Shown: positions 3,343 through 59,519 of the stretch, in pieces
How the letters are laid out: every line of letters begins with the position of its first letter
Numbering within the stretch: position 1 is the stretch's first letter
NCBI GenBank assembly: GCA_964527195.1
Contig: CAZGOH010000001.1
Coordinates: forward strand, 9,505-73,504
Direction: 5' to 3'
Length of the DNA: 64,000 bases
DNA from: an uncultured Methyloversatilis sp.
GTDB taxonomy: Bacteria; Pseudomonadota; Gammaproteobacteria; Burkholderiales; Rhodocyclaceae
Notes under the pieces: model-generated
Seen by the model: only the letters and a program-made list of their open reading frames with translations
The model's database searches: none
Told to the model about the DNA's origin: nothing
Made by a program: the position numbers and the translations under genes

Positions 3343-4152
3343 TCAACGATAACGGTTGATCGCGGCGCGCGTTTCCTGCGCGACCTGGCGGGCGGCAGCG
3401 GCGAAGTCTTCGCCCTTGCTGGCATAAAGGATGGCGCGCGAGGAATTGATCATCAGGCCAGCGCCGTTTGCCGTCCTGCCGGCCTTGACGGTGGCCTCGA
3501 TGTCGCCGCCTTGCGCGCCGATGCCCGGGACGAGCAGCGGCAGATCACCGACGATCTCGCGCACGCGCGCGATCTCGCCGGGGAAGGTCGCGCCGACGAC
3601 GAGGGCACACTGGCCGGTCGTGTTCCAGTCTTTCGCCACCATGTGTGCGACCAGTTCAAAAATCGCCGTCCCGCCAGCGCCGACTTTTTGAAACTGCAGG
3701 TCGCTGCCGCCGGGATTCGAGGTGCGGCACAGCAGGATCACGCCCTTGTCTTTATAGGCGAGCCAGGGCTCGACCGAATCGCGGCCCATGTAGGGATTCA
3801 CGGTGACGGCATCCGCCTTGTAGCGCTCGAACGCCTCGATGGCGTATTGCTCCGCCGTGCTGCCGATGTCGCCGCGCTTGGCGTCGAGGATGACGGGAAC
3901 GCCCGGATGCTTTTCATGGATGTGGGCGATCAGTGCTTCGAGCTGATCCTCGGCACGATGCGCAGCGAAGTAGGCGATCTGCGGTTTGAAGGCGCAGGCG
4001 AGGTCGGCGGTGGCGTCGGCAATCTCGGCGCAGAAGCGCAGGATGTCGCCATTGAGGTGCGCGGGAAACTTGGCCGGATCGGGGTCGAGGCCGACGCAGA
4101 GCAGCGAATTGTTCTTCGCCCACGCAGTGGCGAGCATCTCGGTGAATTTCAT
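3343..4152 (-). CDS. pyrF: Orotidine-5'-phosphate decarboxylase
   Basis: [18 protein letters not shown] and [10 protein letters not shown] motifs. Confidence 0.96.
3664..3687 (-). repeat. 24-bp dispersed motif copy (in pyrF, KVGAGGTA)
   Basis: aaagtcggcgctggcgggacggcg. Confidence 0.9.
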
Positions 4153-4287
4153 TTCAGCACATCCTCAATCCAGTCCCACCGCATGTCCTTGACCATCACG
4201 AACCGGCACCGGTTCCAGCAGGCGGAACGGCACTTCCCTGTGGTGTTTGACGACGGCTTCCTTGCCGATCCAGTGGAGTGTGGGCAT
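4149..4287 (-). pseudogene. Deletion scar of a type III R-M locus (Mod N-terminus joined to Res C-terminus)
   Basis: ATG 4287 gives MPTLHWIGKEAVVKHHREVPFRLLEPVP; another frame ends [20 protein letters not shown]-stop, overlapping the pyrF ATG; homology recalled, not searched. Confidence 0.7.
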
Positions 4288-4683
4288 TCAGACAGAAAAG
4301 GGGTTGAGCACCGGGATGCCGCAGCCGGCGAAATCCGCCGTATTGCGGGTGACCAGTGTTAGCGCATGCACTTGCGCGGTGGCGGCGATGAACATGTCGG
4401 GTTGGCTGCGGACCATGCCGCGCGCGGCAAAGGCGCCGCGCAATTCGCCCGCGCGACGGGCAATCTCAAGCGTGACCGGCAAAACCGGGTGACGCAGCAG
4501 ATAGGTTTCGAACCATGCGGCAATGCGCGCATTGGGACGCCAGGCGAGGCCGAACATGATTTCATCGACGCTCACCGCGGAAATCGCATGCGTGGCCTCT
4601 TGCGCCGCCCACGCCGCCACCCCCGCATCGGGGTGCAAACGCCCAAGCTCGCTGATGATGTTGGTGTCAAGCAGCACGCGCAT
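4288..4683 (-). CDS. vapC: PIN-domain (VapC-family) toxin
   Basis: MRVLLDTNIISE...DMFIAATA...LVTRNTADF. Confidence 0.92.
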   Translation of the reverse strand: MRVLLDTNIISELGRLHPDAGVAAWAAQEATHAISAVSVDEIMFGLAWRPNARIAAWFETYLLRHPVLPVTLEIARRAGELRGAFAARGMVRSQPDMFIAATAQVHALTLVTRNTADFAGCGIPVLNPFSV

Positions 4684-4987
4684 GCGCTGCCGACTCCTCG
4701 ATTTCTTCCTGCATCGCAATAAAGGCATTCGGGCGGCCGACTGACGAACGCGGCAGTGCGGGCAATTCGTAATTTTCTTCGGCGGCGATCTGTCGCAATT
4801 CGGCAAATTCCTCGCCCAGGGTCTTGCGCGCTGCCAACTTGCGCCATTCGTCGAAGGCCCTGAAGGATTCCGCATCGATCACCGCAGCCACACAACGATC
4901 GCGGTTATAGATCATTTGCGGCTCTTCTGCGGTCAGTCGAACCACCTCGGAAAACTGCTGTTTGGCTTGGGCGATATTCCAGGTCAT
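4667..4987 (-). CDS. Phd/YefM-family antitoxin
   Basis: MTWNIAQAKQQFSEVVR...PQMIYNR; overlaps vapC. Confidence 0.88.
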   Translation of the reverse strand: MTWNIAQAKQQFSEVVRLTAEEPQMIYNRDRCVAAVIDAESFRAFDEWRKLAARKTLGEEFAELRQIAAEENYELPALPRSSVGRPNAFIAMQEEIEESAAHARAA

Positions 4988-5002
4988 GGCATTCCTCCAA
5001 TA

Positions 5003-5030
5003 TGTCTATCTGATGTGTCCATTATAGACA
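5003..5030 (-). promoter_or_regulatory. TA promoter (-10 TATAAT) inside inverted repeat TGTCTAT-N14-ATAGACA (probable operator)
   Basis: Minus-strand TATAAT at 5021-5026 flanked by a 7-bp inverted repeat; GGAGG RBS downstream. Confidence 0.6.
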
Positions 5031-5045
5031 CAAGCAGATGGGCGC

Positions 5046-6719
5046 TTATTTCCACGTGTCTTTCAAGCCGACGGTGCGATTGAACACCGGCTTGCCCGGC
5101 TGCGAATCCACACGGTCGGCGACAAAATAGCCGTGACGCTCGAACTGGAAGCTCTGCTCGGGGGCGGCCGCTTTCAGGGCTGGTTCCAACTGGGCGCTGA
5201 TCGTCTGCACCGAATCCGGATTGATATCGTCCAGAAAATCACGCTCCGCGCCCGGATTGGGCACTTTGAACAGACGGTCGTAGAGGCGGACATCGGCCGG
5301 GTAGGCATGTTTGGCCGACACCCAGTGAATGTTGCCCTTGACCTTATAGGCGTCGGCGCCCGGTGTGCCGGATTTGGAGTCGGCAAAGTAGTTGCAATGG
5401 ACGGCCGTTACATTGCCGGTTGCATCCTTCTCGCAGCCGGTGCATTCGACGACGAAACCGTAACGCAACCGCACCTTGTTGCCGGGGAACAGGCGGAAGT
5501 AGCCTTTCGGCGGGGCTTCGGTGAAATCCTCGCGCTCGATCCACAGATCGCGCGAGAACGGTACGGCGCGTTTGCCCAGTTCCGGCTGCTGCGGATGGTT
5601 GGGCGCAAAGCACTCTTCTTCCTGCCCCTCGGGATAGTTGTCGATGACGAGCTTCAACGGATCGAGCACGGCAATGCGGCGCAGGGCGGTTTCGTTCAAT
5701 ACGTCGCGCTGGCATTCCTCGAACACGCTGTAGTCGATCAGCGAATCCGACTTGGTGACGCCGATCATCTCGGCGAACTTGCGGAAACCTTCCGGTGTGT
5801 AACCGCGCCGCCGCGCCCCGACCAGCGTCGGCAGGCGGGGGTCGTCCCATCCGTCGACATGCTTTTCGTCCACCAACTGGATCAGCTTGCGCTTCGACAG
5901 AACAACGTAAGTCAAGTTGAGGCGGGCGAATTCGATCTGCTGCGGCAACGGACGCGGCAGGCAGCCCAACTCGGCCAGCTGGTCGAGCAGCCAGTCGTAG
6001 AACGGCCGTTGGTCCTCAAACTCCAGCGTACAGATCGAGTGGGTGATGCGCTCGATGGCATCCTCGATCGGATGCGCGTAGGTGTACATCGGATAGACGC
6101 ACCAGGCATTGCCGGTGTTGTGGTGCGCCGCGTGGCGGATGCGGTAGATCGCCGGGTCGCGCAGGTTGATGTTGGGCGCGGCCATGTCGATCTTGGCGCG
6201 CAGCACGTGGGCGCCGTCGGGGAACTCGCCGGCCTTCATGCGGCGGAACAGGTCGAGGTTTTCTTGCGGTGTGCGGCTGCGGTAGGGGGAATCAACCCCC
6301 GGCTGCGTCAGCGTGCCGCGATGGGTGCGCATTTCCTCGGCCGTTTGCGAGTCGACGTAGGCGAGCCCGGCGTTGATGAGCGCCTCGGCGCAGTCGACCA
6401 TGGTCTGGAAATAGTTCGAAGCGAAGAACTGGTTGCTGCCCCAGTCCCAGCCGAGCCAGCGCACGGCGTCGATGATCGAGTCGACGTATTCCTGCTCTTC
6501 CTTCTCCGGGTTGGTGTCGTCGAAGCGCAGGTGGCAGGCGCCGCCGTAGTCTTTCGCCAGCCCGAAGTTGAGGCAGATCGACTTGGCGTGGCCGAAGTGC
6601 AGATAGCCGTTCGGCTCCGGCGGGAAGCGCGTGCGGATGGCCGCGTGCTTGCCGGCGGCGAGGTCGGCGTCGATGAGGTTGCGGATGAAGTTGGAAGCTT
6701 TGTTGTCCGTGTCGGCCAT
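5046..6719 (-). CDS. glnS: Glutamine--tRNA ligase
   Basis: RFPPEPNGYLHFGHAKS, VLSKRKL, FQFERHGYF. Confidence 0.97.
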   Translation of the reverse strand: MADTDNKASNFIRNLIDADLAAGKHAAIRTRFPPEPNGYLHFGHAKSICLNFGLAKDYGGACHLRFDDTNPEKEEQEYVDSIIDAVRWLGWDWGSNQFFASNYFQTMVDCAEALINAGLAYVDSQTAEEMRTHRGTLTQPGVDSPYRSRTPQENLDLFRRMKAGEFPDGAHVLRAKIDMAAPNINLRDPAIYRIRHAAHHNTGNAWCVYPMYTYAHPIEDAIERITHSICTLEFEDQRPFYDWLLDQLAELGCLPRPLPQQIEFARLNLTYVVLSKRKLIQLVDEKHVDGWDDPRLPTLVGARRRGYTPEGFRKFAEMIGVTKSDSLIDYSVFEECQRDVLNETALRRIAVLDPLKLVIDNYPEGQEEECFAPNHPQQPELGKRAVPFSRDLWIEREDFTEAPPKGYFRLFPGNKVRLRYGFVVECTGCEKDATGNVTAVHCNYFADSKSGTPGADAYKVKGNIHWVSAKHAYPADVRLYDRLFKVPNPGAERDFLDDINPDSVQTISAQLEPALKAAAPEQSFQFERHGYFVADRVDSQPGKPVFNRTVGLKDTWK

Positions 6720-6778
6720 GGTGCGGCAAGTGCTTGATGCAAAGCGGCGATTCTAGCGTCGCGCCGTAGAATGCGGCC

Positions 6779-7162
6779 ATGAACTTCGCCGCCTTTCTCG
6801 CCATCGGCATCGGTGCCGTGCTCGGCGCCTGGCTGCGCTACGGCCTCGGCCTGTGGCTCAATCCGCTCTTCGCCACGGTGCCGCTCGGCACGCTGGCGGC
6901 GAATTTGATCGGCGGCTATCTCGTCGGCGTGGCGATTGCGCTGTTTCATTTCAACGCCGAACTTCCGCCAGAACTGAAACTGTTCTTCGTCACCGGCTTC
7001 CTCGGTGCGCTGACGACGTTCTCGACCTTTTCGGCCGAGGTCGTGCATCTGATCCAGAATGCGCGTTACGGCTGGGCGGCGGGCGCGGCGTCCTTGCATC
7101 TGTTCGGTTCGCTGCTGATGACCGGGCTGGGCATCTTCACCATTCACAAGCTGGCGCAGTAG
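6779..7162 (+). CDS. crcB: Fluoride efflux channel Fluc/CrcB
   Basis: GAVLGAWLRY, GTLAANLIG and GFLGALTTFSTF signature. Confidence 0.95.
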   Translation: MNFAAFLAIGIGAVLGAWLRYGLGLWLNPLFATVPLGTLAANLIGGYLVGVAIALFHFNAELPPELKLFFVTGFLGALTTFSTFSAEVVHLIQNARYGWAAGAASLHLFGSLLMTGLGIFTIHKLAQ

Positions 7163-7176
7163 GGGCCGGAACGCGC

Positions 7177-7824
7177 TCAGGGCAGCTTGCCTGCGGCGAG
7201 CATGCGCTGGACGAGAATGGCCGCGGGCAGCCAGACGATGCGGTCGTCCGTCTCGGCGCTCGGGATACGATCGAACAGGGTCGGCGGCGTGGCCTCGGGC
7301 AGTTGCTCGATTGCGCCGTTGCGGCCGCGCGAGAACACCGCCGCCGGGAGATGGGTCGCCACGACAAGCGTGCAGGCGGCGTCGGCACAGACGCGAACGG
7401 TGCCGGGGGTGAGCAGGGCAAAACCGTCGGCGTGCGAAAACGCCGGTGCGACGACGTAGCCGAGCGGACGCTCCCAGGCGTCGCGACGGCCGACGCCGAG
7501 GTCGGCCCAGGGCAGGTCGCCGGCCGGGTTCGCGCAGGCACCGTCGTTGGCGCGATTTTCCACGCCGTCGCCATCGGTATCGGGACAGGGCAGGTGCGGG
7601 CGCGCCGGCCGGCGCGCGGCATGGCCGATCAGGACTTCGCTGGCCTCGCCGAGCAGACGGTCGGTGGCGGCGAGATCGCGCTGCTCGCGCTGGGCGGCCA
7701 GCGGCACCAGGGCGCTGCCAAGGAGCAGGGCGAGGACGAAGAACACCACGGCCATTTCGACGAGCGTGAAGCCGCGCAGGGCGAAAGTCGGCGCTGGCGC
7801 TACGGCGAAAGGGCGGGCTGCCAT
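7177..7824 (-). CDS. Type IV pilin / pseudopilin-like protein
   Basis: Class III signal RG/FTLVEMAVVFFVLALLLG; start placed at ATG 7824. Confidence 0.88.
   Translation of the reverse strand: MAARPFAVAPAPTFALRGFTLVEMAVVFFVLALLLGSALVPLAAQREQRDLAATDRLLGEASEVLIGHAARRPARPHLPCPDTDGDGVENRANDGACANPAGDLPWADLGVGRRDAWERPLGYVVAPAFSHADGFALLTPGTVRVCADAACTLVVATHLPAAVFSRGRNGAIEQLPEATPPTLFDRIPSAETDDRIVWLPAAILVQRMLAAGKLP
7784..7807 (+). repeat. 24-bp motif copy (antisense in pilin, AVAPAPTF)
   Basis: aaagtcggcgctggcgctacggcg. Confidence 0.85.
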
Positions 7825-10037
7825 GTGGCGGCGAAGTCGGTGATGCGCACCGCCTGGTCGGTGGTGCGCTGGGCGTTGGCGAAGCCGGGACGCAGGCTGC
7901 GCAAGGCGTCGGCGGCAGCGAAGTTGGCCGTGTCTTCCAGCAGGGGCGCGAAGTCGGCGGCGAGCTGGGTCATCGGGCGGGTGGTGTTTTGCATCGCGGC
8001 GATGCGGTTCGCCACCGCGGCGCTGTCCGCGAGCATCCAGACGCGCGTACGCAGTCGCGCGCCCGCCACGGTGGCGGGCAGCGGATCGAGTTCGACGCGC
8101 ACGTGGTAGAGGTAGCTGTCGCCGCCTTCCGTCGTCTTGCCGCGCAGGTCGCGAAAGGCCAGACCGGGCGAGGGGTACTGCGGATTGCGCGGCGGGGCGT
8201 CCGCCGCGGGCGAATTGGCGGGGAAGCCATGCACGTTGTCGTCGAAGCCGGGCTGGGTGACGCCGTCGGCGGCGTTTGCCGCCGTGTTCCCCCAGTAAAG
8301 GATCGCGACGTGCGAGTTGTAGCCGAGCCCGGCGCAACCGCTCCCCGTGGTGCCGCAGGGATCGTTGCGGCCGGCGTTCTGCGCGGTTTCGCCGCCACTG
8401 CCGGGAAAGCCGGTGTCGCGCGACTGGTCGAACTCGATGCCGATCTTTGGTGGCAGGATCGGCGGCGTGTGGGGGTTGATGCCGGAATAGCCCAGGTGGC
8501 TGCCGGCCGCGCCGCAGGCATTGGCGGTGTTGCGCTGCGCATCCGCCAGCACGAAAATGAAGCCGTTGGAGCCGACGTTGGTGCCGACCTGCCGAAAGCG
8601 GAAGCGGAAATAGATGCGCAGGCCGTCGCCGAGCGTGCGCGCCTCCGGCAGCCAGACGCAGCCATACAGGGCCGGCGCCAGCGCGTTGCCGAGCGTGCCG
8701 GTGACGACGTTTTCGCGGCCCAGTACCAGCGTCCGCGTCGTCGCGTCGTAGGCGGCGAGTTGTTGCGTTTCGGCAAGTGCGGGCGAGGTCACGGCAACGA
8801 AGGGCGCGCCGGCCGGAATGCAGCGCACGATGTCCTGTTCCGGCGCCTGCGGCGGGGCGCGGTCGAAGCGCGCCGCGCCGGTAAAGGCGGCCGTCGCGGC
8901 GCCGAAGCCGGCACGGTTCGCGCCTTCCAGGAAATGGGTGGCATCGGCGCGTTCTGCGGGCGTGAAGCGGCGCTGATGCGCTGCGCGTTGCCCGGCGAAA
9001 AGAAGCGCGGCGGCACAGTCGTCACGGCCATTGACCGTGAAGCTGCCGGTCGGCCGGGCGAGAAACAACTGATCGCGGACATGGCTGAAATAGCCGCGTG
9101 GCGTCTGGCTGTCGTCGTAACAGGCATCTTCGGGCAGGCGATCCGCGTAACCCGGGGGAATCGTCTGGCCGGCCAGGCAGGCGACGATGCGGTCGAGCAG
9201 GGCGTCGATGTCGGTGCGGAAAGCCGCCGATGCGCGCAGCGCCGCGAAGAGACGATCGGCGCCGAGCGGCTGCGCCCGGTCGTTGGCGCCCGCGTTGCCA
9301 TGTATGTCGCCCGGTCCGGGCAGCGTGAACATCTTCCGCGCGCTCGTGGCGTCGGTCGCGGCGGTGGCGCCATGCGTGCCGCCGAGCCGGTTGGGTGCCT
9401 CCAGATAATTCGCCGCGTCGTAATTGCCGCCGCACAGGTTCGTTGCATCGCCGCCGCGCCGCCCGCGCTCCTGCCCGGGCAGGGGCGGCCCGGCGGAGAA
9501 CACGATGGCGATCGGCTGCGCATGCGGCGTTGCGGGGACGACGCCGGCGATGGCGAAATGTCCGGCGCTGTCCCAGTTCATCGGTGCGAGTCGTTGCTGG
9601 CGCTGGTGGCTGGCGGAAACCGCGTACCACAGACACTCGCCGTGGCCGTCGCGTAGCGGCGGCAGGCCGAGGGTGCGCCAGGGCAGGCGGCCGAGGACGG
9701 AAACGCCGAGGGCGTTGCCGGCGAAGTTGGCGGCGTCGCAGCCTTCGAGAGTGCAGCCCGTGTTGTTGTTGCGCGTGCTGCCGAGGTCGGGCAGCGGCAG
9801 GTAGCCATACACCCGGTCGGGCTGCCCCTGGGCGGCCTGTTCGTCGCGGTAGCGCAGGGCGTGGGCGACGAGCGCGTCGGCGGCCCGGGCGAGCGCGGCC
9901 TGGGTGCGACGTTCGCGCGCGGCGGCGACCGCTTCGGGCGAGAGCGCGGCAAGGGCGGCCGACAACGTCACGGCGACCAGCAGGACGAGCAGGGCCAGCA
10001 GTACCGCGCCACGGGAACGTCGCCGCCGTGTCGTCAT
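7800..10037 (-). CDS. Large pilus-associated protein with PilX-like N-terminus and L-type-lectin-like C-terminal domain
   Basis: RGAVLLALLVLL N-terminus; C-terminal NGFIFVLAD...LGYSG...IGIEFD pattern. Confidence 0.7.
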   Translation of the reverse strand: MTTRRRRSRGAVLLALLVLLVAVTLSAALAALSPEAVAAARERRTQAALARAADALVAHALRYRDEQAAQGQPDRVYGYLPLPDLGSTRNNNTGCTLEGCDAANFAGNALGVSVLGRLPWRTLGLPPLRDGHGECLWYAVSASHQRQQRLAPMNWDSAGHFAIAGVVPATPHAQPIAIVFSAGPPLPGQERGRRGGDATNLCGGNYDAANYLEAPNRLGGTHGATAATDATSARKMFTLPGPGDIHGNAGANDRAQPLGADRLFAALRASAAFRTDIDALLDRIVACLAGQTIPPGYADRLPEDACYDDSQTPRGYFSHVRDQLFLARPTGSFTVNGRDDCAAALLFAGQRAAHQRRFTPAERADATHFLEGANRAGFGAATAAFTGAARFDRAPPQAPEQDIVRCIPAGAPFVAVTSPALAETQQLAAYDATTRTLVLGRENVVTGTLGNALAPALYGCVWLPEARTLGDGLRIYFRFRFRQVGTNVGSNGFIFVLADAQRNTANACGAAGSHLGYSGINPHTPPILPPKIGIEFDQSRDTGFPGSGGETAQNAGRNDPCGTTGSGCAGLGYNSHVAILYWGNTAANAADGVTQPGFDDNVHGFPANSPAADAPPRNPQYPSPGLAFRDLRGKTTEGGDSYLYHVRVELDPLPATVAGARLRTRVWMLADSAAVANRIAAMQNTTRPMTQLAADFAPLLEDTANFAAADALRSLRPGFANAQRTTDQAVRITDFAATWQPALSP

Positions 10038-52518: not shown

Positions 52519-52553
52519 CTCCATAATGAATCCATTACGGATTCATTGTGGAG
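52519..52553. promoter_or_regulatory. 15-bp inverted repeat covering the TA -10 and RBS (operator/hairpin)
   Basis: ctccataatgaatcc-attac-ggattcattgtggag, one mismatch. Confidence 0.7.
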
Positions 52554-52559
52554 GCAATC

Positions 52560-52907
52560 ATGCCCAATCTCTCGATCAAGGATGTGCCTGAAACGCTGGC
52601 CGAGGCCCTGCGCCAGCGTGCCGCGCGCAACCATCGCTCCTTGCAGGGCGAGTTGATGGCGCTGCTGGAGGCAGCGGTGCAAACGCCGATGGCGGCGCCT
52701 GGCGTGCGCGAGCCGGCCGTTCCCCCTTACATCGCCGCTCCCTTGCCCGCCGCCGCCGGCCAGGACGATCTGCTCGCCAGGCTGGATGCCATCGTCGCCG
52801 GCAGCCAATGGGGCAGCGCGCCCCTGCTGTCGCGCGAACAGATCCATGATCGCCGGCTGCTGCGCGAGCTGGAACATGACGTACGCCAGACAGAGAGCAC
52901 GCATTGA
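52560..52907 (+). CDS. Arc/FitA-like ribbon-helix-helix antitoxin
   Basis: MPNLSIKDVP...RAARNHRSLQGEL. Confidence 0.85.
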   Translation: MPNLSIKDVPETLAEALRQRAARNHRSLQGELMALLEAAVQTPMAAPGVREPAVPPYIAAPLPAAAGQDDLLARLDAIVAGSQWGSAPLLSREQIHDRRLLRELEHDVRQTESTH

Positions 52908-53332
52908 GCCTTCCCGCGTACTTTCTCGACAGCAACGTGCTGATCTACGCGACCTCGCTGGCGGCCGATCATGCGCAGAAGAAGCCGCGCGCCCGGGCGT
53001 GGGTGGCGCGCACCGACTGGGGAATCTCCACCCAGGTGCTGATGGAGTTTTACGCCCAGGCGCGCCAGCCCAGGCATGGCCTGCTCCCCACGGCGGCGGA
53101 AGACTTTGTGCGTGAGTTGGTCGCCACCCGTCCGGTACAGCCGGTGGATGCCGCGCTCGTGCTCGAAGCCCTGCGCCTGCGTAACCGCTACTACCTGTCG
53201 CACTGGGATGCTGCCATCCTCGTCGCGGCGCGCCTGCTCGGCGCCCGTTACGTCATCAGCGAAGACATGGCCCACGGCGAAAGCTACGACGGCGTGACGG
53301 TCATCAACCCCTTTCTGGAGCTACCCGCATGA
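52904..53332 (+). CDS. PIN-domain toxin
   Basis: FLDSNVLIYA, STQVLMEF, SHWDAAI, SEDM. Confidence 0.9.
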   Translation: MSLPAYFLDSNVLIYATSLAADHAQKKPRARAWVARTDWGISTQVLMEFYAQARQPRHGLLPTAAEDFVRELVATRPVQPVDAALVLEALRLRNRYYLSHWDAAILVAARLLGARYVISEDMAHGESYDGVTVINPFLELPA

Positions 53333-56300
53333 GCGCCCGCGACAAATTTCTCGCCCTGTTGAGAGATGAAATCCTCCAGATGGACTTGTCCGAACTGGAC
53401 TTCGGCCTCTACCGCATTCTCAACTACAAGCGCGAGGAAGTCGCCCGTTTTCTCGATAACGAACTGCCCGCCGAAATCGCCCGCCGGCTGGCCGCTCTGC
53501 CCGGCGCTCCCGGCGAAGACGAAGAAGCGCGCATCTACAACGCCCTCACCGTTTTTTTCTCGCGCTATTTCGTCGAGGCCGACTTCATGCCGCGCGCACG
53601 GCGCGGCAAACACGCCGCCTACAGCGTGCCCTACCGCGGCGAGGACACCCATTTCCACTGGGCCAGCAAAGGCAGCCACTACATCAAGAGCGGCGAACGC
53701 TTCGCCGCCTACGCCTATGTCGAGCCGGCCGGCCGGCGCGTGCGCTTCGTTGTCGCCGCTGCCGATGTGCAAAAAGACAACGCCAAGGGCGACAAGCGGC
53801 TGTACGTTCCCGCCGACGGCAGCGAAGTCGATGGCGAATGGCGCATCGCCTTTGCCTGGCGTCCCCTCGACAAGGACGAAAACAAGCGTTACGGCGGCAA
53901 GTCCAAAGACGGCGCGGCGGAGGGCGACGAAGCCGACGCCGGGGGCGACGCCAACGATGCCGGCACGGGCGCCCCGGCGGCCGCCGGCCGCGACACGCAA
54001 ACGCGCCTGCTCAACGCCTGGCTGGCCGGCGACGACTTCAAGGCCGCGCGCCTGCCCAAGGACATCGACCGCGACCTGCTCGCCAAACACGCGCATCGCT
54101 ACGTCAAGGGCCAAAGTAGCGACTTCTTCGTGCACCCGAGGCTGGCCGAGTTTCTGGAGGGCGAACTCGACTACTACCTCAAGAACGAATTCGTCAATCT
54201 CTGGGACCTGCCCGACGGCGCGGCGCTCTTGCGCGAACGCGAGAAATGCAAAGTCGTCGGCCATCTCGCCCGCGCCATCATCCGCCTGCTCGCCGCCGTC
54301 GAAGACGTGCAGGCCATCCTCTTCGAAAAGCGCAAATTCGTCCTCGCCGCCCACTACCTGGCCCAGGCCTCCTGGCTGTTGCGCGAAGGCGGCGCAGCGG
54401 GCCGGGCGTTGGTGGGCGAAGCGGCGCAAAACACGGCCCAAGTCGCCGAATGGCGGCGCTGGGTCGGCGACGACAAAGCCTCTGGCGATAACCTGCTCGA
54501 ACGCCACCCCCACCTGCCGATCAACACCGCGCACTTCGACGATGACTTTCAATGGCGCCTGCTCGCCTGCTTCCCCGACCTCACCGCCGCCCTCGGCGGC
54601 ACGCTGATCCACGGCGACAACTACGCCGCCCTGCGGACGCTGGAACCGGCTTACAAGCAGGGGGTGAAGTGCATCCATATTGATCCGCCCTACAACACGG
54701 CGACGAGCGGCTTTTTCTACAAGAACGATCTCCCGCATGCCTCATGGTTAAGCATGATGTTTGGCCGTTTAGGGTGCTCGAAGATGCTGCTCTCAGCTCA
54801 GGGAAATTTTCTTTGCCATATTGACGAGCACGAATACGAGCGGCTGCATGTTCTGTGTGCAGAGATGGATTTGGCAGACGCAGGTACGATCATCTGGGAC
54901 AAGAGAAACCCGATGACGGGAGGTGCAGGAGTCGCGACTCAACACGAGTACATCCTTTGGCGGACAACGGAAGAATGCAAGCTTTATCAAAGCAACCAGA
55001 ATATCCAGGCAATATTGGACAAGGCGGCTGAAGTGCTTGCCAAGCATGGTGGCGATAGCAATGCGGCACAGAGTGAGTTTTCTGCGTGGATAGACGCTGG
55101 TGAAAGCTTGAGCGGCGGCGAAAAAGCCTACCGATACCTTGACGCGAAGGGCCGGGTGTATCAATCCGTCAGCCTGCGTGCACCGGAATATCGGCACGAG
55201 GAAAAATTCCGTCAGCCCTTGATCCATCCAGTCACGGGCAAACCGTGTCCCGTGCCGCCCAACGGTTTTTCCAGGACACCGGAAAATCTTGCCGAAATGA
55301 TGTCGCCCCGACGTGACGAAATTCTTTTCGGCCCCGACGAGACAACGCAGCCAAGGCAAAAACTCATCTTGAAACCGTCCACACGGCGGCCCGTTACTTC
55401 CGTGCTGCAAGACGCCAAGAAAGGCAAGGCCAATCTGGACGCATTGGGTTTGACATTTCCTTACTGCCACCCTGTTTCCTTGTACGAGAACCTGACGGGA
55501 TCGGCGATGGAGTCGAATGACTACTGCCTCGACTTCTTCGCCGGTTCCGGCACCACCGGCCATGCCGTCATCAACCTGAACCGCGAGGATGGCGGGCAGC
55601 GGAAATTCATCCTCGTCGAACAGGGCGAGTATTTCGACACCGTGACCCTGCCGCGCATCGCCAAGGTGATGACCTGCCCGGACTGGAAGGATGGCCGGCC
55701 CAAAGTCGGCGCTGGCGGGACGGCGGCAGACGAGGCGCCCGATCACTGGTCGCGCCGCACTCTGCCGCTGGTGCAGGTGTTGCGCCTGGAACGCTACGAG
55801 GACAGCCTGGACGCGCTCGAACTGCCCGCCGACCGCACCGCCCGGCTGGCGGGACAAAGCGGTTTCGCCGCGCTCGACACGGTGCTGCATTACCTGAGCG
55901 ACGCCGTGGCCGAGGACACCACCTTGCGCCTGTCCACCGCGAAACTGACTCGCCCCTTCGACTACCGCCTGCCGGTCACCCACGAAGGCCGCTACGGCGA
56001 AGCGACGGTCGATCTGGTGCACACCGGCTTTTTGCTCGCCGGCCTGCATCCGCTGCGCCTGCGCCGGGTAGAACGCGACGGCCGCCCGACGGTGCTGGCG
56101 GAAGTGCGCCCGCACGGCGCGCCGGAGCGCATCGAACTGGTGTTCTGGCGCGACGTGGATGAAAGTCTGGCGCCGGAGGCCTTGAGCGCAGCGGCGCAAG
56201 CCGAATATGACTGGCTGGCGGCAACGGTGCGCGAAGTTTTCGACCGCCCGTTGGCCGACTATGCCTGCATCTGGCACAACCGCGATTTGCTGCTGCTGGG

Positions 56301-56361
56301 CGGCGAAGCCGGCCGCCCGCTCGATCTCGTGCTGGCCGAACGGATGTGGGAACGCGCCTGA
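53329..56361 (+). CDS. Type III-like R-M DNA methyltransferase (Mod)
   Basis: IHGDN, HIDPPY (motif IV), DFFAGSGTT (motif I), beta-class motif order; ATGA-coupled to the PIN gene. Confidence 0.9.
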   Translation: MSARDKFLALLRDEILQMDLSELDFGLYRILNYKREEVARFLDNELPAEIARRLAALPGAPGEDEEARIYNALTVFFSRYFVEADFMPRARRGKHAAYSVPYRGEDTHFHWASKGSHYIKSGERFAAYAYVEPAGRRVRFVVAAADVQKDNAKGDKRLYVPADGSEVDGEWRIAFAWRPLDKDENKRYGGKSKDGAAEGDEADAGGDANDAGTGAPAAAGRDTQTRLLNAWLAGDDFKAARLPKDIDRDLLAKHAHRYVKGQSSDFFVHPRLAEFLEGELDYYLKNEFVNLWDLPDGAALLREREKCKVVGHLARAIIRLLAAVEDVQAILFEKRKFVLAAHYLAQASWLLREGGAAGRALVGEAAQNTAQVAEWRRWVGDDKASGDNLLERHPHLPINTAHFDDDFQWRLLACFPDLTAALGGTLIHGDNYAALRTLEPAYKQGVKCIHIDPPYNTATSGFFYKNDLPHASWLSMMFGRLGCSKMLLSAQGNFLCHIDEHEYERLHVLCAEMDLADAGTIIWDKRNPMTGGAGVATQHEYILWRTTEECKLYQSNQNIQAILDKAAEVLAKHGGDSNAAQSEFSAWIDAGESLSGGEKAYRYLDAKGRVYQSVSLRAPEYRHEEKFRQPLIHPVTGKPCPVPPNGFSRTPENLAEMMSPRRDEILFGPDETTQPRQKLILKPSTRRPVTSVLQDAKKGKANLDALGLTFPYCHPVSLYENLTGSAMESNDYCLDFFAGSGTTGHAVINLNREDGGQRKFILVEQGEYFDTVTLPRIAKVMTCPDWKDGRPKVGAGGTAADEAPDHWSRRTLPLVQVLRLERYEDSLDALELPADRTARLAGQSGFAALDTVLHYLSDAVAEDTTLRLSTAKLTRPFDYRLPVTHEGRYGEATVDLVHTGFLLAGLHPLRLRRVERDGRPTVLAEVRPHGAPERIELVFWRDVDESLAPEALSAAAQAEYDWLAATVREVFDRPLADYACIWHNRDLLLLGGEAGRPLDLVLAERMWERA
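55702..55725 (+). repeat. 24-bp motif copy (mod, KVGAGGTA)
   Basis: aaagtcggcgctggcgggacggcg. Confidence 0.9.
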
Positions 56362-59300
56362 TGCCCCCCCGCCCCGACCGTCCTTTCGTCAAAAGCCTGC
56401 TGCTGGCGCAGGTGTTCGCTCGCGCGCTGGGCGGGCGGCAGGACGAGATCATGGCCGTGCTGGCGGATTGCCAGACCGGGCGCGACGGCGCCGGCCTGAG
56501 CTATTTCGCCCAGGCGCTGGCGGCGCGGCCGCGGCCGCTGCCCGCCGCCGATCTGGCCGCCTGGGATGCCGCCATCGGCCGCCACGAGGCGGCCATCGCC
56601 GCGTGCCGTCCGGGCTTTCGCCTCACCCACTTTCAATGGCTGGCCTGCCTGGCGGTCGAATGGCATCTGGCCGGCCTCGCCCGCGCTGCGGCGGCCCACG
56701 TCGCGGCCATCGAGGCGTATCGCACCGAAGCCCTGCCGCATCTGCCGCCCTATACGGCGGCAGATGCCGGCAAGCTCGCCTGCTTCATGGCCACCGGCGC
56801 CGGCAAGACGCTGGTGCTGCATGTCAATCTGCTGCAATTCCTGGATCACGGCTTGTTCGCGCCGCAGAACATTCTGCTGCTGACGCCCAATGCCGCCTTG
56901 TCCGATCAGCATCGCCGCGAACTCGACCTGTCCGGCCTGGGCCATCTGCCGGTCACGGTGACGGAGATCACCAAGTTCTTTGTCGATGAACCCGGTGTGC
57001 GCCGGCCGAAAAAGGGCGTGTCCGAAGGCACTTCGCGCTACGAAGGGCCGAATCTGCTGCTGGTGGACGAGGGCCACAAGGGCGGGAGCGCCGAGGCCGG
57101 CACCGAACGCCAATGGCGCGCCATCCGCGAGGCGCTGGCGCAAGGCGGCACGGCGGACAAGACCGGCTTCGCCTTCGAGTATTCGGCCACCTTCGCGCAA
57201 ATCGCCGACAAGGATGCCGACCTCTACCGCGAATACGCGAAGTGCACAGCGGTGGATTTTGGCTACGCGCGCTTTTACCGCGAGGGCTACGGCAAGGAGC
57301 CGCGCGTACTCAACGCCCGCGATGCCGAGGGCGCAGATCAAACCCTGGCGGCGGGACTGATTCACTTCTACCAGCAACGTCGGGCTTACGCCGATCATCG
57401 CTTGCTGGCGGTCGAGGCGCAGGTCGAGGCGCCCTTGCTGGCCTGCGTCGGCAAGGAAGTGACGACCGGGCGCCAGGCCGACGTGGTGGAACTGGTGCGC
57501 TTTCTGGTGCGCGCCGCCATTGACACCGACTGGCTGGCCAAACACCTGGCCGCCGTGGCGCACTGGACGCGCCCGGCCCAGTCGGAACTGGCAGGCGATC
57601 CGCTCGACTTCGGCTATCTGGCCGGGCTGAATCTCTCGCCCGACGCGCTGGCGCGCGACATGCAGGAACGGATTTTCGGCGGCACGGGACAGATCGAGGC
57701 GCGACTGCTGTCCGACAAGGAAATCGGCCTGCGCTGCCGGGGCGCGGCGGACGATGCCTATTTCGGCGTGATTCGCGTTGGTGAAGCGAAAAAGCTGCTC
57801 GCCCTGCTCGACCAGACCGGGGTGGCGCGCGGCGAACCGGATCGTTTGAGCGGTTCGCTGTTCGCGCGCATCGACGATGACGCCCGTTTGAGCATTTTGA
57901 TCGGCGCCAAGATGTTCGTCGAAGGCTGGTCGTCCTGGCGCGTCTCCGCTCTTGCGCTGATGAACGTGGGCCGCTCGCCCGGCGCCGAGATCATCCAGTT
58001 GTTCGGTCGCGGGGTGCGCCTCAAGGGCAGGAACTGGTCGTTGAAGCGCGAAGCGCATCCAGGTGCGGCGGTCGGCTTGCTGCAGACGCTGATGGTCTTC
58101 GGCGTGCGCGCCGACTACATGCAGAAGTATCTGGAAACGCTGGCCGTGGAAGGCGCGCGGCCGAACTTGCTGTATGTCGAGGTCGCGCCGCCGGCGCCCC
58201 CGCTGGCCGACCTGGGCCTCTTCACGCTGCAGCCGGACGCAGCGATTTTCCGCGCGCCGGTGGTGTTCGACCCGACGCGGGCGCGGCCGATCATCGAGCG
58301 CATCGCGCCGCTGGCTTCGCTCTCGCAGGGGCTGGCGGGCGCGCAAACGCTGGGCGGGCGCCTGACGCGCACCGACAACCTGCGCGGCTGGCTGGCCGAC
58401 GAAGCCGCCTACCGGCTGGCGCTGGGCCTCAAGCGGCGTTATCGCTGGGCCGGCCTGTTCGTCGCGCCGGAGGCGCTGGCCGCCTATCTCGCACGCTGCG
58501 CGGTCGAAGCGCCGGCGGATTATTTCGATGACCCGGCCTTCTGCGCCGCGCGCCGCGCCCAGGTCGCCGCGGTCTGCATCGAAAAGGGCTTGGTGGCCTG
58601 CCTGCGCGCCGCCGAACAACGCTGGCGCATGGCCCGGCTGGCGCCGACCCCGCTCGACGACGACAACGCCGGCCTGCCCTGGGCCTACGAGGGCACGACC
58701 CGCCGCTTGCGCTACCGGCTGGAAGTGGATGTGGAAAACGCCGCCGTCGCTGACATGATCGATCTGGCCGAACGTCATGTGCGCGAGGAGATTTTTCCGC
58801 CCGCCTATCTGGCCGAATTGCAGGCGCTGGTGTTGCGTCATGCCGGCATGAGCGCACTGGCCGGCCGACTGGAAAAGATGCTGCAAACCGCCCTGCCGCC
58901 GGGCGACGACCTGGCGCCCCCGCTGCCGCGGCTGGTGTTCGACCGCCATCTCTACCAGCCGCTGCTGCTGGCGCAACCGATGGTCGTCGAAGCCTCCGGC
59001 CAACTCGCGCTGTTCGGCCCTGACGACAAGCCGCCGCGCGGCTTGCGCATCTCCCCGCCGGCGCTCAACGCAGGCGAGGCGCGTTTCGCCTGGGATTTGC
59101 GCGCCTTCTGGGAGCGTCATCACGACACGCCCGGCTGGCGCGACATTTCCCTCTATCTGCTGCGCAATCCGGCGGCGGGGGGCGTGAGCTTGTTCCGCGC
59201 CGCCGGCTTTGCGCCCGACTTTCTGCTCTGGCTCAAGCGCGCCGATGCGCAGGTGCTGGCCTTCGTCGACCCCAAGGGGCTGGGCCGCGTCTGGCCGGAC

Positions 59301-59519
59301 GACAAGATCGAGATGCTCAAGGCGCTGGATTCGCTGGCCTTGTCGCTGCCGGTGCGCGGCTATCTGGTCACGCCCTCCGATCGCGCATCGCTGGCTCTGC
59401 CGCCCGGCATCGCGTCCGACGACGCCAGCCTGGCGTTCGAGCATGTTTATGTTCAGGAAAACGACTATATCGACCGCCTGCTGCATGCCATCGTTGCGGC
59501 TTTGGAGACGCCGCGATGA
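56361..59519 (+). CDS. Type III-like restriction subunit (SF2 helicase plus PD-(D/E)xK nuclease)
   Basis: MATGAGKT, DEGH, QLFGRGVR, C-terminal PDF...DPKG. Confidence 0.88.
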   Translation: MPPRPDRPFVKSLLLAQVFARALGGRQDEIMAVLADCQTGRDGAGLSYFAQALAARPRPLPAADLAAWDAAIGRHEAAIAACRPGFRLTHFQWLACLAVEWHLAGLARAAAAHVAAIEAYRTEALPHLPPYTAADAGKLACFMATGAGKTLVLHVNLLQFLDHGLFAPQNILLLTPNAALSDQHRRELDLSGLGHLPVTVTEITKFFVDEPGVRRPKKGVSEGTSRYEGPNLLLVDEGHKGGSAEAGTERQWRAIREALAQGGTADKTGFAFEYSATFAQIADKDADLYREYAKCTAVDFGYARFYREGYGKEPRVLNARDAEGADQTLAAGLIHFYQQRRAYADHRLLAVEAQVEAPLLACVGKEVTTGRQADVVELVRFLVRAAIDTDWLAKHLAAVAHWTRPAQSELAGDPLDFGYLAGLNLSPDALARDMQERIFGGTGQIEARLLSDKEIGLRCRGAADDAYFGVIRVGEAKKLLALLDQTGVARGEPDRLSGSLFARIDDDARLSILIGAKMFVEGWSSWRVSALALMNVGRSPGAEIIQLFGRGVRLKGRNWSLKREAHPGAAVGLLQTLMVFGVRADYMQKYLETLAVEGARPNLLYVEVAPPAPPLADLGLFTLQPDAAIFRAPVVFDPTRARPIIERIAPLASLSQGLAGAQTLGGRLTRTDNLRGWLADEAAYRLALGLKRRYRWAGLFVAPEALAAYLARCAVEAPADYFDDPAFCAARRAQVAAVCIEKGLVACLRAAEQRWRMARLAPTPLDDDNAGLPWAYEGTTRRLRYRLEVDVENAAVADMIDLAERHVREEIFPPAYLAELQALVLRHAGMSALAGRLEKMLQTALPPGDDLAPPLPRLVFDRHLYQPLLLAQPMVVEASGQLALFGPDDKPPRGLRISPPALNAGEARFAWDLRAFWERHHDTPGWRDISLYLLRNPAAGGVSLFRAAGFAPDFLLWLKRADAQVLAFVDPKGLGRVWPDDKIEMLKALDSLALSLPVRGYLVTPSDRASLALPPGIASDDASLAFEHVYVQENDYIDRLLHAIVAALETPR

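Follow-up and report, generated by a model that had tools for sequence, protein, structure and literature searches.

We report that positions 4149-4287 of the window, the whole 64,000-nucleotide stretch of DNA analysed here, very probably represent a type III restriction-modification (R-M) operon reduced to a deletion scar without function, a reading to which we assign a probability of roughly 0.93. In the history that we propose, a phd-vapC-mod-res cassette would have sat between the genes glnS and pyrF, and recombination or replication slippage at the two copies of a 10-11-bp direct repeat would then have removed about 4.26 kb, leaving 28 codons of mod joined in a different frame to the final 20 codons of res. 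The scar is a case of ordinary gene decay.

All genes at the locus lie on the minus strand, in the order glnS (6719-5046), a 58-nt spacer, phd (4987-4667), vapC (4683-4288), 135 nt, and pyrF (4152-3343). The stop codon of vapC is followed without a gap by an ATG (TGAATG at 4290-4285), which in the list of open reading frames opens a chimeric ORF of 40 amino acids (4287-4165). This ORF consists of MPTLHWIGKEAVVKHHREVPFRLLEPVP, that is, codons 1-28 of a type III methyltransferase gene (4203-4287), followed by 12 out-of-frame codons encoding VRDGQGHAVGLD and a stop located 12 nt 5' of the pyrF ATG. Read in the +1 frame, the downstream part of the same segment gives the last 20 codons and the TGA of a res gene (4149-4212), the TGA (4151-4149) overlapping the ATG of pyrF (4152-4150). 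The two frames meet at CCGGTGCCGG (4212-4203), which encodes PVP when read with mod and RCR when read with res and sits within the palindrome AACCGG-TG-CCGGTT (4214-4201). The original prediction, made from the letters alone, had described this sequence, both of its frames and the string ccggtgccgg at 4203-4212 within an inverted repeat, and the description is exact. The scar lacks the DPPY catalytic motif of Mod (codon 77 in an intact relative, contig L172, introduced below), the nuclease motif PD..EYK of Res (codons 834-856) and the helicase motifs. Since 4149-4287 retains nothing of Mod beyond codons 1-28 and nothing of Res but codons 881-900, and thus lacks the catalytic and recognition parts of both enzymes, the segment is a remnant rather than a type III R-M system, and because no catalytic motif of either enzyme survives, the R-M system is dead.

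The two peptides had been taken for the start of a Mod protein and the end of a Res protein, and database searches bear this out. The 40-aa ORF matches 41 database proteins, with E-values down to 3e-10, and the canonical continuation of these matches is ...EPVPELSCGDADSGNLIVQGDNLHALKALLPRYAGQVKCIYIDPPYNTG, a DNA methyltransferase N-terminus running into the DPPY motif (IYIDPPYNTG); 24 of its 28 Mod residues are those of the Mod protein of L172. The consensus of the Mod N-terminus was used to fetch 80 genomic loci, in which the C-terminal peptide was then sought by tblastn. In about 30 genomes the 20-aa res tail proved to be the extreme C-terminus of a ~900-aa gene that follows Mod (E-values down to 1e-9), and in these loci a peptide such as RCRFVMVKDKRWDWIEEVLK is found on the same strand as Mod and 4.2-5.4 kb past the Mod ATG. 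The res-frame peptide, submitted as a 46-mer, had no match in the protein database search because that search demands three shared 5-mers. The search with the Mod N-terminus returned only proteins of 36-70 aa. Systematic truncation of the Mod family was considered in this connection and rejected, as many of the matches are cut off where their contigs stop, and a short query is biased towards short proteins; full-length genes of the family are abundant among the fetched loci.

These full-length genes identify the family. Mod contains the Pfam domain N6_N4_Mtase (PF01555) and matches the PADLOC model MTase_III PDLC03644 over its full length (E 3e-219 for a Comamonas genome, L006, and 1e-185 for L172). 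Compared with the PDB, full-length Mod matches the Mod subunit of EcoP15I (4zcf_A, 5e-45) and 6k0w_B (7e-64). The Res family is recognized by Pfam ResIII (E 3e-13) and by PADLOC REase_III PDLC03650 (E 2e-119, and 4.5e-120 for L172). The link from Res to the Res subunit of EcoP15I is weak, with an E-value of 6e-6 for a profile of 21 homologues, and a single Res sequence had no match in the PDB. The Res motifs PTGGGKT 66, DEAH 219, PDF 834 and EYK 854 are invariant in the 21 homologues. In L172, L006, L003 and L013, mod is directly followed by res on the same strand; in some relatives a zeta-toxin-like gene lies between the two. The ancestral cassette would accordingly be classified as a type III R-M system, with a beta-class Mod, a Res combining SF2 helicase motifs with a C-terminal PD-(D/E)xK nuclease, and the order mod then res.

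The genomic contexts of PyrF homologues (89-93% identity) provide an allelic series at the glnS-pyrF locus. In seven contigs with four distinct sequences (L163, L164 and L167-L171) the site is empty and the glnS stop overlaps the pyrF start (..TGGAAATGAAATTCACC). This empty site, with glnS and pyrF overlapping stop-on-start, is the ancestral state. An intact allele occurs in the metagenome contig L172, in the order glnS, phd (106 aa), PIN gene (131 aa), Mod (563 aa; 5607-7298), Res (900 aa; 7302-10004) and pyrF, which is the glnS-phd-vapC-mod-res-pyrF arrangement that the original prediction had proposed to seek among relatives. Its motifs are complete (DPPY77 and FAGTG356 in Mod; PTGGGKT66, DEAH219 and PDF834..EYK854 in Res), and its flanks are 85-88% identical to the window. 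The overlap of the Res stop with the pyrF start is also present in this intact allele, as expected from the earlier proposal that coupling to pyrF was kept when mod-res was excised. At the same locus, L165 and L166 carry a 1.1-kb mosaic of Mod 1-~115, a zeta-toxin-like fragment, a small ORF, and Res 1-28, 393-435 and 837-900. This remnant, which requires at least three deletions, is an independent decay product at the locus.

Alignment of the window with L172 locates the junction to the base. Two blastn alignments, 6796-4203 at 87.6% identity and 4212-3353 at 84.9%, overlap by exactly the 10 bases 4203-4212, where the window holds its sole copy of the repeat. At both corresponding breakpoints of L172 (5681, in Mod codons 26-29, and 9940, in Res codons 880-883) there is a copy of GCCGGTGCCGG, an 11-bp direct repeat that contains the 10-mer; the two copies are 4,259 bp apart. 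The long allele thus has two copies and the window a single CCGGTGCCGG, and loss of one copy together with the interval from L172 gives the sequence of the window. Excision of a mod-res pair several kb long at a 10-bp microhomology, as originally proposed, is therefore supported by the breakpoints, and its size would be 4,259 bp provided that an allele like that of L172 lost the segment all at once. The deletion junction created the palindrome AACCGG-TG-CCGGTT as a by-product. In more distant relatives the two sites perfectly share only TGCCGG, with 9/10 bases identical overall, so that the length of the repeat in the true ancestor may have been anything from 6 to 11 bp. Repeats of such length are common: eight independent pairs of 11 bp or more occur within the 4.4 kb of the cassette; consequently, the repeat accounts for the position of the break and not for why a deletion occurred.

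From the repeats observed at the breakpoints we infer a single-step deletion and its mechanism. The operon could instead have decayed stepwise by earlier internal deletions or frameshifts, in which case the present junction would mark only the last event, possibly a ~1-kb deletion in an already degraded remnant. The multiple deletions in L165/L166 at the very same locus and another internal mod::res fusion in L018 (Accumulibacter) both speak for this course of events, whereas the perfect repeat at both breakpoints of the intact allele means that one step suffices, and the toxin-antitoxin (TA) pair of the window is far closer to that of L172 (92.6% nucleotide identity) than to that of L165 (73%). 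We consider stepwise decay unlikely. In view of the multi-step decay in L165, a single deletion is the simplest reading rather than a proven one.

The window apparently derives from a metagenome-derived contig, which raises the question of a mis-assembly across the repeat, or else of a merely coincidental similarity of the two peptides. We found nothing in support of either, and several results contradict them. A repeat of 10 bp is too short for an assembly at k=31 to collapse on it. The identical short allele is present in two independent Logan assemblies, which argues against an assembly artefact, and two metagenome contigs contain the same VapC protein and the same scar. The DNA alignment to L172 extends over 2.6 kb on one side of the junction and 0.9 kb on the other, and the tblastn matches of the res tail are at the expected position and on the expected strand. 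An explanation by artefact or chance is effectively refuted. The long allele and its joints are absent from the assembled Logan contigs of the runs that hold the short allele, SRR11582152 and ERR11489095 among them. A low-depth branch at 4238 in one of the runs was examined as a candidate and rejected, as it represents the upstream sequence of an HTH_17-mod element of the L174 type (described below) and not vapC.

In contrast to the R-M genes, the TA pair is intact. The gene glnS (5046-6719, minus strand), a glutaminyl-tRNA synthetase gene according to its ORF translation and to orthologues with Pfam tRNA-synt_1c, ends here in a new TAA (TGGAAATAA), as opposed to the stop overlapping the pyrF start in the empty-site relatives. 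The 58-nt spacer (4988-5045, minus strand) came with the TA pair, being conserved in L172, in L165 and in an unlinked phd-vapC copy, L083. It contains a TATAAT hexamer within the inverted repeat GTGTCTAT...ATAGACAT, and GGAGG precedes the phd ATG. The hexamer and inverted repeat likely form the TA promoter/operator; a strict sigma-70 scan of the region found no full promoter match, so that we infer a promoter role for the spacer from these elements. The phd gene encodes an intact Phd/YefM-family antitoxin of 106 aa (Pfam PF02604, E 2.8e-7; its score with the NCBIfam model phd_fam is just under the cut-off), and vapC an intact PIN-domain toxin of 131 aa (Pfam PF01850, E 1.6e-13). The two genes overlap by 17 nt, in the layout of a Phd/YefM-VapC type II TA module. 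In a comparison with tRNA(fMet)-cleaving VapC, the NCBIfam VapC models give 43.7 and 27.3 bits, where their cut-offs are 140 and 143.

The pyrF gene (OMP decarboxylase; Pfam PF00215, E 7e-30) begins at the end of the scar. The sequence GAGGA within the codons for WIED of the res remnant is located 8-12 nt before the pyrF ATG, and by its position it can serve as a putative Shine-Dalgarno sequence of pyrF. A promoter/terminator scan detected no terminator-like site between glnS and pyrF, and pyrF therefore probably remains the distal gene of a transcript that also covers glnS and the TA pair. This arrangement allows for the possibility that the scar has been exapted and is maintained because the 40-aa ORF, or its translation, works as a leader or coupling element through which expression of pyrF from the TA operon is set. 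The ORF begins on the vapC stop and ends just upstream of the pyrF ATG, the res-derived GAGGA is at Shine-Dalgarno distance, and no terminator intervenes; however, the scar has no match to an Rfam family and no unusual RNA fold, its predicted structure being no better than that of shuffled sequence (z +1.46), and the junction of the res end with pyrF is the same in the intact allele and is thus inherited rather than newly evolved. Exaptation appears to us very improbable. All copies of the scar and of the 40-aa ORF that were found are 100% identical and hence contain no variation for a conservation comparison. The palindrome AACCGG-TG-CCGGTT was also evaluated as a terminator or regulatory hairpin and rejected, since no T run follows and the fold is no better than shuffled.

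Regarding the origin of the cassette, the Res protein of L172 is 93-94% identical to the Res proteins of the Comamonas genome L006 and of a metagenomic mobile element, L174; the Mod protein is only about 61% identical to the Mod proteins of the same two, as expected for a variable recognition domain. L174 and L175 represent a mobile element in which an HTH_17 gene and mod accompany genes for a recombinase, a primase and AlpA; in L174 mod is followed by res and a McrBC-like pair, and the contig L175 stops inside mod. These contigs show the native setting of the R-M family of the scar, a mobile element with the HTH_17 gene as leader. The native sequence 5' of the Mod ATG is ...GGCCTGAATG; vapC natively ends in ...GTCTGA, as in L083, where no mod gene follows; the native res end reads CTGAAATGA and the empty site TGGAAATGAAAT. 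Both ends of the mod-res segment fall on short microhomologies, with CTGA where it borders vapC and GAAATGA where it borders pyrF, which explains why the res stop overlaps the pyrF start. As regards the TA pair, the copy in the window is 92.6% identical to the copy in L172 and 73% identical to the copy in L165; beside these values stand identities of 84-88% among all lineages for the flanking genes, which suggests that the cassette has been exchanged between lineages rather than simply inherited vertically.

A second locus in the window is relevant to the question whether a TA-led R-M operon is a recurrent module, as the original prediction had suggested from the order TA, mod, res, housekeeping gene at 52.5-59.5 kb. 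The layout there is confirmed. On the plus strand, a FitA-like RHH antitoxin gene (52548-52907; Pfam PF22513) and a PIN toxin gene (52904-53332; PF01850) are followed by an intact type III R-M system of another subfamily, with a Mod of 1010 aa (53329-56361; PADLOC MTase_III PDLC03646, E 4e-173; Pfam N6_N4_Mtase) and a Res of 1057 aa (56346-59519; REase_III PDLC03654, E 1e-75; Pfam ResIII), and then by a tlyA-like gene; ahcY borders the locus on the antitoxin side. Stop/start overlaps join the R-M genes to the PIN gene upstream and to the tlyA-like gene downstream. For the Mod family of the scar, the nearest upstream ORF on the same strand was classified at 64 loci: it encodes HTH_17 at six, PIN at five and PIN_10 at one, and PemK, HepT, ParE and GNAT at one each, the others being unrelated. 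A TA toxin is directly upstream at about 10 of the 64 loci (about 1 in 6, as a raw count), and a TA pair is not a constant upstream neighbour of this family. A metagenome scan with VapC did not find the long allele; in L083, the closest relative of the phd-vapC pair, the genes sit in a nadA neighbourhood with no mod-res genes following. The idea of a recurrent TA-led module is thus only partly supported, in view of the raw count, the native HTH_17 leader and the context of L083; on the basis of gene order, the TA-led arrangement is recurrent, the second locus included, and not defining.

A more far-reaching interpretation would be that phd-vapC-mod-res is a discrete composite cassette that enters housekeeping operons at stop/start overlaps by microhomology (GAAATGA at glnS/pyrF), in which the TA operon replaces the HTH_17 controller as the leader of the R-M genes, and that spreads from one lineage to another by flank homology, the addictive TA pair outliving the R-M genes. 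The stop/start overlaps at the PIN-mod and res-tlyA-like junctions of the second locus count in its favour, as does the 92.6% identity of the TA pairs of the window and L172 against 86% for the flanks. We offer it as a speculative and rather unlikely interpretation.

In itself, the scar is of little importance. Its interest lies in the clean natural series that it completes in uncultured Rhodocyclaceae, where empty site, intact operon, one-junction scar and multi-deletion remnant occur at one locus with junctions resolved to the base. The series indicates that R-M cargo of mobile elements can enter a housekeeping operon by way of microhomology with translational coupling undisturbed, and that the R-M genes may then be quickly lost and the neighbouring TA pair stay. 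It also holds a warning for annotation: some pipelines give the 40-aa ORF the label 'adenine-specific DNA-methyltransferase', although it is only a fragment of a pseudogene. As a separate observation on the same lineage, the 23-nt motif AAAGTCGGCGCTGGCGGGACGGC is strongly over-represented in it.

In comparison with known systems, the intact loci of L172, L006, L003 and L174 resemble the type III systems EcoP15I and EcoP1I in having mod then res on one strand, and like EcoP15I they encode a Mod with DPPY followed by FAGTG and a Res with PTGGGKT, DEAH and a C-terminal PD..EYK; unlike any such system, the window keeps only the beginning of mod and the end of res, mutually out of frame. The TA genes resemble Phd/YefM-VapC modules in that the antitoxin gene overlaps the PIN toxin gene, has its own palindromic operator region and adjoins R-M genes, and TA modules are reportedly common beside R-M genes in defence islands. 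They differ from the usual modules in that the vapC stop abuts the mod ATG, so that a reading of the TA operon would have included the R-M genes, a position that an HTH_17 gene usually holds in this R-M family. Deletions between short repeats are routine, and a long allele with two repeats beside a short allele with one is what replication slippage or RecA-independent microhomology-mediated deletion would leave behind. The closest parallel is Xanthomonas axonopodis pv. citri 306, where a type III R-M allele is replaced by a 125-bp short ORF via deletion (Furuta, Abe & Kobayashi 2010, PMC2853133); the same work describes insertions of R-M genes at the starts and stops of genes and within operon-like clusters. 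As in that case, the type III R-M system of one genome corresponds to a short ORF at the same locus in a relative. In contrast to that case, the breakpoints here can be placed in a 10-11-bp direct repeat, the series contains the empty, the intact and two decayed alleles, and a TA pair that arrived with the R-M genes or before them survives. The scar is a new and very well resolved case of a known event, in which an R-M system is lost and a short ORF stays behind (cf. PMC2853133).

The neighbourhood of glnS and pyrF is a hot spot at which the resident toxin-antitoxin (TA) pairs differ by lineage. Across lineages we find TacA/GNAT pairs, an unnamed small gene with a PIN gene shortly before glnS, and CcdAB on the downstream side; such pairs lie at 6228-7019 in locus L163, 7622-8331 in L164, 5772-6475 and 13105-13673 in L165, and 13714-14258 in L168. 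The same locus carries a 1.1-kb mosaic remnant in L165 (8877-10004) and L166 (376-1503), composed of Mod residues 1 to ~115, the C-terminal end of a zeta-toxin-like gene, a small ORF, and Res residues 1-28, 393-435 and 837-900. The phd-vapC genes of this mosaic locus are only 73% identical to those of the window. In contrast to L172, the metagenome contig with the intact glnS-phd-vapC-mod-res-pyrF allele, the ancestor of the remnant apparently had its mod and res separated by the zeta-like gene. A gene for a 174-aa zeta-toxin/AAA_33-like kinase is inserted between mod and res in L004 (11596-12120) and L005 (11609-12133), where it is a toxin-like gene within the R-M operon. In L008, mod and res are separated by the same ~750 nt.

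Another independent decay of the R-M family behind the window scar is found in Accumulibacter sp. SCELSE-10 (L018, 1807-12034 of NZ_JAMTDX010000080.1), where mod is fused in frame to res (mod::res, 737 aa). Behind the fusion lie a complete Wadjet system, JetABCD (PADLOC, E down to 0), and, after it, a pyrF homologue (69% identity); the DNA preceding pyrF is thus a site of defence genes in a second genus as well.

In its native setting the mod-res cassette is carried by a mobile element, seen in L174 (1-16132) and L175 (1-8223), whose genes include a serine recombinase, a DUF3987 primase, AlpA and HTH_17-mod. The element in L174 additionally carries res, a gene for a McrB-like AAA_5 protein and McrC, and its mod is broken into ORFs of 43 and 489 aa, owing to either a frameshift or an error in sequencing. 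The L175 contig stops within mod, and it also has the TA genes ParE, AbiEii and TacA/GNAT a short way upstream.

The window also contains an over-represented 23-nt motif, AAAGTCGGCGCTGGCGGGACGGC (consensus AAAGTCGGnnCnGGCGnnACGGCG), with 13 copies at up to 3 mismatches and 16 at up to 4 (expected 0). The copies are split 8:8 between the strands, at 3665-3687, 24596, 27653, 38194, 42428, 43126, 45857 and 51551 (-) and at 7784, 12315, 21440, 48297, 55702, 59687, 60016 and 61181 (+). Their edges are sharp, their flanking sequences are unrelated, and the reading frame differs between genic copies for at least two of them. The copy inside pyrF occupies the same position in seven lineages. The acquired mod gene of L172 holds the motif twice, at 5706-5722 and 7038-7054, as a 17-bp direct repeat, and one of these copies sits within the N-terminal variable region, in a 13-aa insert that is missing from canonical Mods; consequently, insertion in frame is a way in which the motif can arrive, either as the insert itself or as part of it.

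Motif density is ~1 per 4.4 kb in loci of related lineages (35 copies in 155 kb); other genomes hold only 4 copies in 1.13 Mb, and 595 kb of unrelated metagenome loci hold none. The ORFs at window 7177-10037 (-) include a putative prepilin-type N-terminus, GFTLVEMAVVFFVLALLLG, as read from translation alone, and pilus or competence-type genes could be relevant to the motif. The motif sequence had no match in the literature searched; it looks similar to a DNA-uptake-signal-like repeat or to another kind of short repeat spread across the genome.
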